A stretch of 64,000 nucleotides of DNA, taken from positions 1,587 through 65,586 of the forward strand of contig DUKY01000013.1 of NCBI GenBank assembly GCA_013329055.1, written 5' to 3'. Under the pieces are notes generated by a model, which worked only from the letters and a program-made list of their open reading frames with translations, was not told the DNA's origin and did not search any database. Numbering within the stretch: the stretch's first letter is position 1; every line of letters begins with the position of its first letter. This DNA is from Nanobdellota archaeon. Lineage in GTDB: Archaea; Nanobdellota; Nanobdellia; Pacearchaeales; GW2011-AR1. Of this stretch, positions 6,765-44,827 are shown in pieces. The translations under genes were made by a program, and so were the position numbers.

Positions 6765-6983
6765 TCATTTCTTTTTATTTACTAGAAAATCTATTACATA
6801 TCCAAGACTACAAGCACCAAAATAAACAAATAAAATTGCTATAATTGGATATCCAATTTGGATAAATAATATAGAAGAAGAATAAAAACCTAGATTAAAA
6901 TAATTCTTTATATAAACTAAAAGTAAAATTAAAAAAAGAATTATTTTACTTTTACTATTAAGTTTTATTATTTCCAAATCCAT
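6765..6983 (-). CDS. small membrane protein
   Basis: 72 aa with two hydrophobic segments. Confidence 0.3.
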   Translation of the reverse strand: MDLEIIKLNSKSKIILFLILLLVYIKNYFNLGFYSSSILFIQIGYPIIAILFVYFGACSLGYVIDFLVNKKK

Positions 6984-7017
6984 AATCCTCTAAAGTTTAC
7001 CTCCCTTATAATTTTAT

Positions 7018-7367
7018 GTGATATCCAAGAAGGCTCAAAAAGATATCACCCTTCCATGTTTCGAAGAGATTCAAAAAGAACCAAGGGGTTCACATTCTAT
7101 GTGGCATCCACAGAGGCTCCGAAAGTTTACACTTGCATAATATTCTGAAAGCAAATTTTAAAAGTCGCAAGTGTGGGCTTGAGTTTAAAGATACCACCGA
7201 ACCGCAATTTAAGGAGATTCAAAAGAAACCAGCAGGTGTCTTTTACGCACGACAACATCAATTTCAAAAAACATAATTGTCGTGCTTGTGGCATTTACGA
7301 AGGCTCAACAAAATGCCACCGCTCCACAATTCGAGGAGATTCAAAAAGAACCAACGGGTTCTTTTTA
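7018..7367 (+). repeat. mosaic structured repeat block: A, an A interrupted by module C, B, A
   Basis: Hairpins gtgatatc/gatatcac (7019-7026/7042-7049) and gtggcattt/aaatgccac (7289-7297/7312-7320). Module C (7121-7185) sits between the halves gtggcatc (7102-7109) and gataccac (7191-7198). Module B is the gcacgacaa..ttgtcgtgc hairpin at 7246-7286. The block is near-identical to parts of 15124-15670 and 44326-44827. Confidence 0.9.
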
Positions 7368-8213
7368 TCCGAATATCAACCCAGCAATTGCCGAAATAAA
7401 GAAAGACATAAACATCAACCAGAAAGAATGTTTAACACCAGACTTAACTCCACCACCGGAAAGTTTACCTATCGCAAGACCACTAAAAAAACCTTGCACT
7501 AATAACAGATATAAAAATGAACCAGTAAAAGATTCACCTTGTGAACCATTACCACCAGCAACATTCGGGCTACTCAAACCTTGATTAGTAATATCACCGG
7601 TAAATGCAATACCTTCAACCAAAGGTAAAATTTTAAATTGCATAACCAAAATAATAATTGTAAAAACAAAAAAGATAATATAACCTTGAACAACTAATGC
7701 AGAAATATTTGCTTCTCTTTCTTTTCTCAACTTATCTGAAGTATTAACAGCACCAGCAACAGCCTCTAAAATTTCGCCAATATCTCCCCCAGCCCTTTCA
7801 GCCTGACCAATTAAAGTTATTGAACGAGAAATTGATTTATTCCCAATATCATCTGCAAAAGTCTTAAACGCAGTATTTAATGCAATACCCAAAAGGATTT
7901 GATTAGCTAATTTTTTAACATGTGGACTCAAAACACCATAAGACTTATCTTTAACATTAGTAATACTTTTACTAATAGGATTTCCAGCCTTAACACTTTC
8001 AACTAAATTCCTCGCGAATTCTAAAAACATTTGTTCTTTTTCCCGCTCAACACGAGTTTCATACATAATTCCCAATACAAAAGGCAAAACACCAACTAAA
8101 ACCGCAACACCCATCAAAACAAAAAAAGCTTTAGTCTCCATAAGATAAACAGCTAAAGCTAAGATTAAAATTGAACTTCCTATAGCGACCCAATGTATTG
8201 CGGTTGTTTTCAT
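7365..8213 (-). CDS. type IV pilus/archaellum platform protein, FlaJ/PilC-like T2SS-F domain (second half)
   Basis: 282 aa, polytopic, with one T2SF-like domain (..SISRSITLIGQAERAGGDIGEIL..). The last codons, FG-stop, lie inside the repeat block. Confidence 0.65.
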   Translation of the reverse strand: MKTTAIHWVAIGSSILILALAVYLMETKAFFVLMGVAVLVGVLPFVLGIMYETRVEREKEQMFLEFARNLVESVKAGNPISKSITNVKDKSYGVLSPHVKKLANQILLGIALNTAFKTFADDIGNKSISRSITLIGQAERAGGDIGEILEAVAGAVNTSDKLRKEREANISALVVQGYIIFFVFTIIILVMQFKILPLVEGIAFTGDITNQGLSSPNVAGGNGSQGESFTGSFLYLLLVQGFFSGLAIGKLSGGGVKSGVKHSFWLMFMSFFISAIAGLIFG

Positions 8214-15670: not shown

Positions 15671-15705
15671 GTAGACTCTGAGGTTTGCTCATAATTAATA
15701 AAAAA

Positions 15706-15928
15706 GCTACCTTCACCCATTCTCAGCTCTGCTACCTGCTAAGCACCTTATCAAATGTTTAGGGCTGCTTGGTTCCCCACCTGACCCAGTTCGCATCTGC
15801 AAGATCAAAGCAGACAAAGCGTCAACGTCTGGAATAAAGACTTTTTTACGCATTAATCACGCCCCTCATTGCAGCTTGCCATAAAGCCCGTTTGCAATAA
15901 AGCGGAGGGCTAATCCGCTACCTAGTCT
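15706..15928 (-). ncRNA. signal recognition particle RNA (7S/SRP RNA), short form; ends approximate
   Basis: The minus strand reads ..CUGGGUCAGGUGG-GGAA-CCAAGCAGCCC.., matching the universal helix-8 motif (compare E. coli 4.5S GGUCAGGUCC-GGAA-GGAAGCAGCC). The segment is much more GC-rich than its surroundings. A TATA-like cttaaatagtataatt lies upstream and a T-run at 15700-15705 lies downstream. Confidence 0.75.
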
Positions 15929-23427: not shown

Positions 23428-23553
23428 GAACCTATAGCTCAGTCTGGTTAGAGCGCCGGTCTTATATGAACTTAATCCATTTAGGATTATTTTATCTCAA
23501 TAGATACAGTCTAAGAGAGCCGGAGGCCCTGAGTCCAAATCTCAGTAGGTTCA
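23428..23553 (+). tRNA. tRNA-Ile (anticodon UAU) with a 51-nt intron at the canonical 37/38 position (23467-23517)
   Basis: Manual fold. Acceptor gaaccta/taggttc; D arm gctc-agtctggtta-gagc; anticodon stem ccggt/gccgg; loop c-t-TAT-a. A central 4-bp helix cuua/uaag flanked by 3-nt bulges (ua|u and ag|a) forms a bulge-helix-bulge. T arm ctgag-tccaaat-ctcag; discriminator a. No CCA is encoded. Confidence 0.8.
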
Positions 23554-26635: not shown

Positions 26636-26793
26636 AATATCACCACAATTGAGGAAGCTCAAAAACTTCAAAAGTATCGTCTTTTGAACGCGTTTAAATT
26701 TCAATGAAATTTAAATGCTAAAAATCTTTGATTTTTATGTCCCAGAAAATTTAATTCTACAAATTTTCTGAGGAAACCAGCGGGTGTCTTTTA
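26636..26793 (+). repeat. mosaic repeat: module A 3' part interrupted by hairpin modules G, H and others
   Basis: atatcaccacaattgaggaagctcaaaa | cttcaaaag-tatcgt-cttttgaa | tttaaatttca-atg-aaatttaaa | taaaaatc-tttg-attttta | cccagaaaattt..aaattttctgagg | gaaaccagcgggtgtctttta. The outer parts join up as in the PolB copy of module A. Confidence 0.8.
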
Positions 26794-27116: not shown

Positions 27117-27196
27117 TTGGCAATTCAAGGTTTTTTTAAGGGAGGGGGGGGCTTTAGCCCAAACTTGAAGAGGGAATCCAAAAAAGATTTAAACCT
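27117..27196 (+). repeat. module D copy (variable hairpin between conserved flanks)
   Basis: tttggcaattcaagg..ttaaggga-ggggggg-gggct-tt-agccc-aaacttgaagagggaatcc. The same flanks occur at 33681-33747 and 39970-40095. Confidence 0.7.
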
Positions 27197-33648: not shown

Positions 33649-33779
33649 GCTCTGCCCAGAGTTTTTGATTTTAGCTAACTTTTGGCAATTCAAATATTTA
33701 TTAAGGGCGGGCCTTTCGACAAATGTCGAAACTTGAAGTGGGAATCCTAAAATCAAAAAAACCTAATTCTGGACAGAGC
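33649..33779 (+). repeat. module D copy bounded by imperfect inverted repeats (MITE-like)
   Basis: The left arm gctctgcccagagtttttgattttag (33649-33674) is the imperfect reverse complement of the right arm ctaaaatcaaaaaaacctaattctggacagagc (33747-33779). The core is ttggcaattcaaatatttattaagggcggg-[tttcgaca-aa-tgtcgaaa]-cttgaagtgggaatc. Confidence 0.8.
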
Positions 33780-33824
33780 CGACCAAACAGATTCTTTAAA
33801 AAAGGGATTATTCTTAATAATTTT

Positions 33825-39922: not shown

Positions 39923-40112
39923 AAAAAAAGTGTGCTTAATAATAAAAATTTAATTTTTGATTAACTTATTGGAAATTCAAATATTCTTAAGGGCGGGTCT
40001 TCAAGCTTTAGCTTGAACTTGAAGCGAAAGTCTACATTTGCATTAATTCCAAAGGTAAAATTGAAAAAAGCAAGTGTGGACTTGAGTAGGGAATCTCAAA
40101 AATCTAAATTTT
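39923..40112 (+). repeat. composite repeat: J, then module D carrying a nested module C
   Basis: J is aaaaaaagtgtgcttaataataaaaatttaa. D is ttggaaattcaaatattcttaagggcggg-[ttcaagct-tt-agcttgaa]-cttgaag. C (cgaaagtctacatttgc..gcaagtgtggacttgagta, 40025-40088) is inserted before gggaatc. The flanking inverted repeat is aaaaatttaatttttga / tcaaaaatctaaatttt. Confidence 0.8.
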
Positions 40113-40190
40113 CATACGCTTTTTTCAAAGAAACCCAAATAAAAAATTCATAGAAAAAGTTAAGAATCTTATAAGTTTTTTAAAATAAAA

Positions 40191-43590: not shown

Positions 43591-43702
43591 GGGTTTTGTT
43601 AAATCTTAAAAACAATTTTAAAAAAACTTCAAAAGTATCGTCTTTTGAATGTCCCAGAAAATTTAATTCTACAAATTTTCTGAGGAAACCAGCAAGTTTT
43701 TA
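43591..43702 (+). repeat. mosaic repeat I-G-H plus a degenerate module A 3' end
   Basis: gggttttgttaaatcttaaaaacaatttt.. | cttcaaaag-tatcgt-cttttgaa | tgtcccagaaaattt-aattctac-aaattttctgagg | aaaccagcaagttttta. The final tta is the vapC stop codon on the minus strand. Confidence 0.75.
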
Positions 43703-44071
43703 CTTAACAAATTCCACATTATCCAAATCCCTAAATTCCTTATCTCCGGTTAAAAATTTAACCCCATGCATCTTTGCCAAAACATAACCAATGCAATCTA
43801 TATAAGACAATTTTCGTTTTTTATAAAATAATTTAAGTTCATTAGCTTTCTTAATTACATCATCAGAAATATCAACTGCAAAAGGCAACAAAAGAGAATA
43901 ATAAAAATCCGCCTCATTTTTGCTTAAATTTCTTAACAAAATATAATGCAACTCCATAAGATTTAACCTTGTAGTTATCACCTTAACATCAGAGACATAA
44001 GAAAGATAATTTTTATTTTCCTTAACAATCTCAATAAAAGCATAAGTATCAAAAAAATAAGCTAATTCCAT
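43700..44071 (-). CDS. vapC: PIN-domain ribonuclease toxin
   Basis: 123 aa with N-terminal FFDTYAFIE (first PIN acidic residue) and a later D in FLTGDKEF. It overlaps the upstream antitoxin ORF. Confidence 0.7.
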   Translation of the reverse strand: MELAYFFDTYAFIEIVKENKNYLSYVSDVKVITTRLNLMELHYILLRNLSKNEADFYYSLLLPFAVDISDDVIKKANELKLFYKKRKLSYIDCIGYVLAKMHGVKFLTGDKEFRDLDNVEFVK

Positions 44072-44277
44072 CCTTTCCTTGCTTCATCCTTTAATTTCTG
44101 CCCACTTTTTTTAAGTTTACCTTTTAATGAACCATACACATTACTTAAATCAGCATCATAAACCAGATTAATTCTAATCTCATCATTTTCCTTTAAATCC
44201 TCTTTCTTCACCAATTCCTTTGGTAAAATAATCCCAATAGAATTTCCCCATTTCTTAACTTTAACTTTAATTACCAT
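44062..44277 (-). CDS. vapB: AbrB/SpoVT-family antitoxin
   Basis: 71 aa: VKVKKWGNSIGIILPKELV, a swapped-hairpin motif. Confidence 0.7.
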   Translation of the reverse strand: MVIKVKVKKWGNSIGIILPKELVKKEDLKENDEIRINLVYDADLSNVYGSLKGKLKKSGQKLKDEARKGWN

Positions 44278-44325
44278 AATTATACAAAGTATAACTTTAT
44301 TTAAATATTGCGGTGAAAGAAGTAA

Positions 44326-44827
44326 AAAAATTTAATTCTACAAATTTTCTGAGAGAACCAACAGATTCACATTCTATGTGGCATCCCAAGAAGGCCGAAA
44401 GTTTACACTTACATTAATCCCAAAGGTAAAGATAAAAGCTGTAAGTGTGGGCTTGAGTAGAAAGTTTACACTTGCATTAAATTCTGAAAGCAAATTTTAA
44501 AAGTTGCAAGTGTGGGCTTGAGTAAAGATATCACCGCTCCGCAATTTGAGGAAGCTCAAAAGACCAAGGGTGTCTTTTACGCACGACGACATGAATTCTA
44601 AAATATAATCGTCGTGCTTGTGGCATCCAAGAAGGCTCATAAAGATGCCACCCTTCAATGTTTCGAGGAGGGTTAAAGGGAACCAAGGGGTGTCTTTTAC
44701 GCACGACAACATCAATTTCAAAAAACATAATTGTCGTGCTTGTGGCATCCACAAAGGCTCATAATGATGCCACCGAACCGCAATTCGAGGAGATTCAAAA
44801 AGAACCAACGGGTTCTTTTTATCCGAA
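44326..44827 (+). repeat. large mosaic repeat block: H fragment, an A interrupted by two tandem C modules, then B, A, B, A
   Basis: The stem halves gtggcatc (44378-44385) and gatatcac (44527-44534) are separated by C copies at 44397-44458 (stem acacttac/gtaagtgt) and 44459-44523 (acacttgc/gcaagtgt). The following B hairpins are cacgacga/tcgtcgtg and cacgacaa/ttgtcgtg. An intact A hairpin is gtggcatc/gatgccac at 44620-44627/44644-44651. Confidence 0.9.

Follow-up and report, generated by a model that had tools for sequence, protein, structure and literature searches.

The window, the whole 64,000-nt stretch of DNA that was analysed (C13:1587-65586, contig and positions), lies in the genome of a Nanobdellota archaeon, a 1.19-Mb assembly in 26 contigs with 29% G+C, and the public runs holding this genome are groundwater metagenomes. 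Its genes are archaeal (unsplit RNA polymerase subunit A, Cdc48, FEN1 and FlaJ-like proteins among them), and most are on the minus strand; all 11 copies in the window of the repeat hairpin described below as hairpin 1 are on the plus strand. An Rfam scan of the window at gathering thresholds returned only a tRNA and an SRP RNA. At 23428-23553 Rfam detected a tRNA gene whose anticodon loop is interrupted by an intron of ~55 nt, and ARAGORN in bacterial mode reported no tRNA in the entire window.

The window carries several families of short repeat modules. Module A contains two hairpins, hairpin 1 (GTGGCATC..GATGCCAC, with a usual loop of 18 nt, CCACGAAGGCTCAWAAAG) and hairpin 2 (GGTTC-AAAAG-GAACC). 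Module D is an element of ~135 nt with long inverted arms (GGCTCTGTCCAGAG..CTAAAATC / ..TCTGGACAGAGCC), and module C is a discrete cassette, 5'-CGAAAGTTTACAC..variable apex..GTGTGGGCTTGAG-3', with no gene of its own. An earlier note on this DNA had described four places at which modules are nested inside other modules, and direct reading of the sequence found them as described, with one correction given below. The features are as follows.

7018..7049, plus strand: empty hairpin 1 with an 18-nt loop (CCAAGAAGGCTCAAAAAG), in the same cluster as 7102-7198
7102..7198, plus strand: hairpin 1 of A with one C unit, read directly
7120..7183, plus strand: C unit, variant C1, 64 nt, CGAAAG..CTTGAG
7288-7319: second empty hairpin 1 of that cluster
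26637..26792, plus strand: 5'-truncated A, hairpin-2 loop (..CTCAAAA/../AAACC..) with E, X, Y and F
26666-26688: hairpin E, 27 copies in the genome
26689-26718: hairpin X, 2 copies in the genome
26719-26738: hairpin Y, 1 copy in the genome
26739-26773: hairpin F, 12 copies in the genome
27138..27180, plus strand: empty divergent D core, hairpin GGGGCTTTAGCCC with compensatory changes, ..CTTGAAG-A-GGGAATCC
33701..33747, plus strand: empty D core, ..CTTGAAG-T-GGGAATCC, flanked by long inverted D arms
39987..40096, plus strand: D core, TAAGGGCGGG-hairpin-CTTGAAG..GGGAATCTC, with one C inside
40025..40086, plus strand: C unit, variant C4, 62 nt, inside D
44378..44534, plus strand: hairpin 1 of A with two tandem C units
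44396..44457, plus strand: C unit, variant C2, 62 nt
44459..44522, plus strand: C unit, variant C1, starting AGAAAG, second in the tandem

At 7102-7198 the arms GTGGCATC (7102-7109) and GATACCAC (7191-7198) are split by the remnant of the loop and one C (7120-7183), and in the RNA fold predicted for this interval (-28.1 kcal/mol, z = -3.5) the stem of the host is followed by an internal loop and then by the long stem of C. The two units at 44378-44534 (44396-44457 and 44459-44522) have different apexes and are joined as ..CTTGAG-T-AGAAAG.., with a left junction of GGCC, not GGCTCC; heterotypic C tandems in this genome all end in C1. At 26637-26792 four hairpins interrupt the truncated A within ..GCTCAAAA/A..AAACC.., as had been claimed. 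For the D copy at 40025, C was found between CTTGAAG and (TA)GGGAATC as described, but these two words are not strictly contiguous in the empty copies at 33732-33747 and 27164-27179, where they stand one base apart (T or A). A CRISPR-like reading of the tandem units, which have a conserved 27-nt joint and a variable middle, was considered and rejected: each middle pairs with the flanks of its own unit, and the same middles are seen at many loci.

The nested junctions recur in three JGI metagenome contigs (L136, L105, L106), in a relative, SMAG_U8054, and in a 116-nt Logan unitig crossing the left junction, and since the same junctions occur in independent assemblies they are no assembly artefact. 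Logan unitigs in the repeats are 64-176 nt long, too short to read empty/filled polymorphism from the public runs, and a unitig joint 7119>7186, considered as an empty allele, was set aside because its 30-nt anchor could stem from any empty hairpin elsewhere. Nested repeats of this kind break assemblies, and many contigs end in them.

A pattern search of the 1.19-Mb genome returned 20 canonical copies of C and none of the reversed control pattern, placing the real pattern far above chance. All 20 share the ends 5'-(C)GAAAGTTTACAC and GTGTGGGCTTGAG-3', are 53-64 nt long, and carry one of four apex variants (C1, 64 nt; C2 and C4, 62-63 nt; C3, 53 nt). The loop of hairpin 1 takes fourteen of them and D takes six, in each host family at a single site and always in the orientation of the host. 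Three atypical copies were found beyond these: a class II unit in a T-loop-like fragment (contig C26), a divergent copy (contig C23), and a 5'-truncated copy beside the right arm of a D copy (contig C19).

The stem of C was analysed by position-by-position pairing of 54 distinct cassettes from all sources, covering many genomes. Position 1 is a closing C-G pair (A in the second unit of tandems), positions 2-3 are an invariant tandem G·A / A·G, and positions 4-13 form a 10-bp helix paired in 539 of 540 cells, within which three U·G wobbles at positions 7-9 are retained in 50-54 of the 54 cassettes, the exceptions being U-A or C-G. Positions 14-15 covary, being either U-A, U-A (UU/AA; class I) or again G·A, A·G (GA/GA; class II), and at positions 16-17 compensatory changes turn G-C into A-U; the cassette has the form 5'-C-GA-AAGUUUACAC..apex..GUGUGGGCUU-GA-G-3'. 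With its U·G wobbles and tandem G·A pairs the stem looks RNA-like, and because of these pairs the fold exists on one strand only. Folding with RNA parameters gave the host stem plus the C stem for filled hairpins (z about -3.5), and folding with DNA parameters gave the stem for class I and not for the class II unit tested (C3), which speaks against a purely DNA hairpin.

Genome-wide, hairpin 1 is present in 46 copies, 11 filled and 35 empty (one tally gave 10 filled; the eleventh, C18:81029, was added from the listing of C copies), and the loops of the 35 empty copies are nearly fixed in length, mostly 18 nt. Module D, which takes C in its central loop, is filled in 4 and empty in 8 of its 12 copies. 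The 14 hairpin-1 copies of C all follow GGC(TC) and precede (T)TARAG, and the six D-borne copies all follow GAAG and precede T(A)GGGAAT; the catalogue of all junctions that the earlier note had proposed as a check comes, for this genome, to 20 copies at one site in A and one in D. The second split point in A (TCAAAA/GGAACC) is the loop of hairpin 2, a site that is empty in 21 A copies and holds E+F or more in about 10 (~7 with E+F, one with E+X+Y+F, one with E, other hairpins and F), and the comparison with SMAG_U8054 gave a pair of orthologous sites of which only one member holds E+F. D extends beyond the core recognised earlier, with arms GGCTCTGTCCAGAGTTTTTGATTTTAG .. CTAAAATCAAAAAAACTTAATTCTGGACAGAGCC (window 33650-33790; C14:20200-20340; C18:104650-104800), and a second subtype with different arms lies at window 39940-40120. 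The idea that D is a promoter module was dropped, the downstream gene being co-oriented in only 7 of 12 copies and D being a long inverted-repeat element.

Comparison of empty and filled sites defined the ends of C. At C23:89934 the empty hairpin reads GGCTC-A-TAAAG and its SMAG_U8054 ortholog GGCTC-[CGAAAG..CTTGAG]-TAAAG; empty D reads GAAG-TGGGAATCC and filled D GAAG-[CGAAAG..CTTGAG]-T(A)GGGAATCC. In both A and D the unit therefore runs from C to G with no target duplication. A duplicated target motif had been proposed (ggctc/ggcttgag or cttgaag/cttgag); none exists, the boundaries in A and D being flush, and GGCTTGAG, which lies inside C in every context, is for that reason part of C. The junctions vary by 1-2 nt, with GGCTCC, GGCC, GGTC or GACC to the left of C and T, TT or TA to its right, as would be expected of imprecise or repair-driven events more readily than of a precise recombinase. 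All that the left flanks have in common is a loose purine-rich word (..CGAAGGC, ..AGAAG, ..CGAAT/CGAGT, ..GAGGGC), and the base directly 3' of C is nearly always T.

Across hosts, C is placed on the 3' side of the host hairpin loop, 0-9 nt ahead of the 3' arm of the host, with host stems read by eye from the flanks since automatic folding of joined flanks was not robust for 90-nt constructs. The distance to the 3' arm is 5-6 nt in hairpin 1 of A, 8 nt in the central loop of D, 1-3 nt in T-arm-like pieces of other genomes (CCCCA-GAATTCGAATTC-[C]-TTG-TGGGG), and 0-9 nt in other hairpins (TTAGCAC-CAAAGGC-[C]-GTGCTAA; CTCTC-ATAAGGCAGAGGC-[C]-TA-GAGAG; ..AATAA-GGGAGGGC-[C]-TTGGGAGGG-TTATT..). Of the earlier proposal that single-stranded loops are the preferred target, the loop position holds in hairpins 1 and 2 of A, in D, in T-arm-like fragments and in other hairpins, but targeting is not established by it, since selection could give the same pattern, insertions into a stem destroying the host hairpin. 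A third host context within this genome was seen on the minus strand at C26:7420-7830, where a class II C (CGAGAGTTTACACGAACC..GTGTGAGCTTGAG) follows TTTTTTTTCGAATCCC, and E-type hairpins are likewise placed after the T-loop-like GATTCGAATCA.

The RNA-like stem of C invites the reading that the cassette is an optional helix of functional structured RNAs, protein-binding and K-turn-like at GGCUCC, with its place in loops reflecting RNA architecture, which we consider unlikely. The three invariant U·G and tandem G·A pairs, the one-strand fold, and folding with RNA energies where C3 fails with DNA energies all favour it, as does a single copy kept downstream of a HerA-like gene, a site that is syntenic across species whose HerA-like proteins are 67-81% identical and at which the apex has undergone compensatory changes; this retention hints at function over pure selfishness. 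The GGC-UCC-GA..GA-GUU junction, as read from the sequence, matches the K-turn consensus, and the geometry GGC-UCC-GA-AAG../..CUU-GA-GUU would fit the GGCTCC junction. However, the bulge is reduced to 1 nt in the GGCC junction and is absent in D and between tandem units, and the geometry is also lost in tRNA-fragment junctions. Rfam offered nothing either: cmscan with permissive filters over 6980-7380 gave only chance-level matches (E > 1). Neither C and D boxes nor a bulge-helix-bulge motif were recognised in C, the nearest approach to the latter being a single 3-nt bulge (CGA or UCC) at the GGCTCC junction only, with none on the 3' strand, though a relaxed motif may have escaped inspection by eye. 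Four metatranscriptomes from the same site contain the SRP RNA of this organism at 100% identity and none of modules A, B or C, a weak negative given that these libraries are small and may have lost short RNAs. The sporadic range (2 of 100 genera of the family) also weighs against an RNA helix, as does orientation, modules A and C between co-directional genes being antisense in 15 cases and sense in 2. Contigs of the metatranscriptomes stop at ~15676-15682, just ahead of a 122-nt A+B array (window 15676-15900).

C and its hosts differ in range. A search of 99 other genera of the family gave no match to the exact hairpin-1 pattern of A. C-type ends are present in 2 of 100 genera, the other one being G097, in 8 further archaeal MAGs with 1-2 copies each, and in metagenome contigs, which add ~30 flank contexts, among them T-arm-like tRNA fragments, hairpins of other kinds and the end of a HerA-like gene. 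Outside A and D the cassette often lies in T-arm-like pieces of duplicated tRNA 3' ends, in partial tRNA copies adjoining intact tRNAs. Copies of the same variant are 95-97% alike, and the A flanks carrying them 58-66% alike. C is phylogenetically wider than its host A and, judged by sequence, is younger than, or separate from, its hosts.

For the comparison with SMAG_U8054 (DATDUI01), a syntenic relative with genes 93-96% identical to those of this genome, loci were retrieved and aligned by local BLAST. Both empty and filled forms were found at orthologous sites, the second check that had been proposed, and C content differs at 7 of 8 orthologous repeat clusters. The cluster at C23:89934 is empty here and holds C1 in the relative; that at 7102-7198 holds C1 here and a C3-type unit there; and that at 44378-44534 holds C2+C1 here and a single C3 with a GGCTCC junction there. 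At the remaining sites, C4 here corresponds to C1 there, one site with no cluster here has an A with C1 there, two arrays of empties here have C2+C1 in the first unit and C2, respectively, there, and one cluster is unchanged, with C2+C1 in both. At C23:89934 the A copy that in this genome has no C has no E+F at hairpin 2 either. At 39987-40096 SMAG_U8054 is without any D, the whole intergenic mosaic having been replaced.

These data bear directly on the alternative that the composites (A+C, D+C) are ancestral and the simple copies deletion derivatives, which the earlier note had named as the outcome that would overturn its own reading. We regard it as very improbable. The hairpin-1 words CGAAGGC..C..TTAGAG also flank C in another genus (L127), and the empty loop CTC-AWA-GAG can be read as a remnant, both in its favour; yet the 35 empty loops are near-fixed in length with no direct repeat to serve so precise a deletion, recombination between GGCT and GGCT would leave GGCTTGAGTTTAAAG, which was not seen, C is far more uniform than A, and C occurs without A in other genera. 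With empty and filled forms at orthologous sites in the relative, and with the wider range of C, its unrelated hosts, its uniformity and the near-fixed empty loops, a single ancestral composite is rejected: C entered A and D secondarily.

How present differences arose is a separate matter. It is possible, though less than probable, that the entry of C into A and D is ancient and happened only once or a few times, and that C is no longer mobile, so that today's variation would be the product of slippage, gene conversion and homologous recombination within the sets of ~50 A and 12 D copies. At orthologous hairpins with different C variants, the A sequence around them is only ~83-85% identical against 93-96% in genes, and this excess divergence of the flanks indicates recombination among repeats at work; the replacement of whole intergenic mosaics (D site), chimeras joined at C, and the failure of searches for Y1 and TnpB to find a transposase point the same way. 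Against recombination alone, C variants 95-97% alike sit in A backgrounds 58-66% alike, conversion tracts would have to end repeatedly at the boundaries of C, and the presence of C in many unrelated hosts of other genera implies that it moved between contexts several times. The earlier view of repeated mobility is thereby divided: C is an entity of its own that entered secondarily, but for the variant swaps with changed flanks recombination or gene conversion explains the data at least as well as repeated transposition. A three-level mosaic was read on the minus strand at C19:79320-79740, consisting of D-left, C4, C1, the right half of hairpin 1, further A and other modules, a 5'-truncated C4 and D-right, and it looks like recombination between C copies from different hosts.

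The account that we hold with moderate confidence is that C is a gene-less, strand-specific DPANN hairpin cassette, copied without target duplication and in one orientation into the 3' sides of hairpin loops. Some host or foreign enzyme would recognise the conserved basal stem of C, and the cassette would be copied into the 3' side of the loops of other hairpins, always in one orientation and with no target duplication, the original entries probably being true insertions into single-stranded (DNA or RNA) hairpin loops. Abundant A (hairpin 1) and D (central loop) would have supplied such loops, and with two abundant repeat families doing so C would have multiplied there, singly or in tandem, as a repeat within repeats. 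The conserved ends of C together with the host flanks would then act as portable homology, through which units may be swapped, doubled, lost or recombined between loci. Present differences would be a mix of C entries and recombination of host repeats, and the latter may explain much.

Searches for an enzyme were carried out in the genome, which is 85% complete. No Y1 transposase, TnpB, reverse transcriptase or Cas1 was found in it, and RAYT (PF01797) gave no match while control profiles did. Clustering of 352 ORFs from 30 loci revealed no recurrent neighbour of C other than syntenic housekeeping genes, no viral contig carries C, and the polymorphic C sites are all in repeats, with no insertion in unique sequence having a clean empty allele. 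Compared with MITEs, C has no target-site duplication (A empty/filled pair, D copies) and no terminal inverted repeats matching an autonomous element, its ends being an imperfect stem and the transposase searches having covered Y1_Tnp and TnpB. It shares with IS200/IS605-derived elements the absence of target duplication and the single orientation, and is a single hairpin lacking separate LE and RE hairpins and a conserved tetra- or pentanucleotide target on its 5' side, with neither TnpA nor TnpB found in the genome. As a short imperfect palindrome, strand-specific and in many copies, it resembles REP/REPIN sequences. The exact boundaries of C, the host-loop rule and the conserved stem are the facts needed for finding the mobilising enzyme.

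Among known systems, the enterobacterial BIMEs (REP mosaics), in which IS1397 and ISKpn1 insert into REP loops, are similar in being intergenic clusters of a few hairpin modules with fixed relative orientation and strain-variable copy number and composition, and in having other elements inserted in the loop of a palindromic unit. Here, in contrast, the insert is a 53-64-nt gene-less hairpin and not an IS, the host is an archaeon with a 1.2-Mb genome, this genome is without a RAYT (Y1) transposase, and C is without a GTAG-type 5' word. The modular BOX repeats of Streptococcus pneumoniae (boxA-boxB(n)-boxC) are likewise non-coding, with a variable number of an internal module and no known means of movement, but their modules stand side by side, whereas C is nested in hairpin loops and is found in hosts of quite another kind as well, tRNA fragments among them. 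Rickettsia palindromic elements (RPEs) are also small hairpin repeats of a reduced, AT-rich genome with no transposase known, and they are tolerated in frame within genes; we know of no nesting at a fixed loop position and no heterotypic tandems among them, and unlike them C has a strand-specific G·U/G·A stem. Fungal mitochondria contain gene-less mobile hairpins, namely the double-hairpin elements (DHEs) of Allomyces, the GC clusters of yeast and 'byps'. DHEs and GC clusters resemble C in lying between genes, in structured regions and in genes, and in varying in presence between close relatives; they are organellar and in a GC-rich context, whereas C is archaeal and in an AT-rich one, and to our knowledge no link of DHEs or GC clusters to tRNA 3' ends has been described. 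DPANN archaea have very small genomes that are usually described as poor in mobile DNA, and this genome maintains hairpin repeats without genes, layered one within another, whose turnover is faster than that of its genes. A literature search for DPANN hairpin repeats or MITEs found no relevant report in the collection searched, and a repeat moving or exchanged inside repeats, known from bacterial mosaic repeats, is apparently new for these archaea. Small structured elements at several tRNA positions have been described as transposed tRNA introns in Thermoproteales and mobile C/D box sRNAs in Nanoarchaeum (Randau 2012, PMC3491384). C is like these as a small structured RNA-type element in tRNA-related sequence whose spread is unexplained. 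Unlike the tRNA introns, in-silico excision of C (12 boundary variants, ARAGORN) restored no tRNA gene, with 0 of 35 contexts outside A and D giving an extra tRNA, and the reading of C as a tRNA intron was rejected.

Outside this genome, two kinds of locus share one layout. In L060 (3270-3420), L109 (7460-7650), L114 and L127, C lies 25-32 nt after the stop codon of a gene for a HerA-like ATPase (DUF87/HerA_C), where it is single-copy; a second copy of the last 13 codons of the gene follows C, and a short copy of the preceding codons precedes it. The two 40-nt copies of the gene end in L109 differ at 2 bases, and those in L060 at 10 of 42 bases, with 8 of 9 changed codons synonymous (GEAPTAVKVEKKL* versus GEASTAVKVEKKL*), as if, to judge by these codons, both copies had evolved as coding sequence. 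The same layout was read at tRNA genes (L068:7150-7370, L098, L144, L104/L117/L124, L113/L118/L141), with an intact tRNA followed by a short spacer and a partial 3'-end copy, T-loop to acceptor end, that C interrupts at the border of T-loop and T-stem; in L113, L118 and L141 C and the tRNA fragment have opposite orientations. An intact tRNA lies within 160 nt at 9 of 35 loci outside A and D, several of these being the same site. From this layout we would put forward, tentatively and with considerable doubt, that C is the conserved core of an archaeal mobile element of an undescribed kind that acts on single strands, has no transposase of its own, and homes to the 3' side of T-arm-like loops. 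In other DPANN genomes C always lies within a partial duplicate of the 3' end of the upstream gene, a tRNA or the HerA-like gene, as might be expected if the element supplied its target gene with a new 3' end and so let it survive. Were this so, a host enzyme that processes RNA or DNA would recognise C by its invariant U·G and G·A pairs. C is also of interest for the unusual arrays that tRNA fragments form around tRNA genes in these archaea.

Two further observations were made. The interval at window ~43690-44310, which includes a PIN-domain (VapC-like) gene (43700-44071), does not align with its ortholog in SMAG_U8054, where the sequence is a different one. At C14:51144-51512, a 123-aa ORF consists wholly of repeat modules (A, C4, E, F); since the modules are without stop codons in the plus orientation, gene callers may report false proteins from them.
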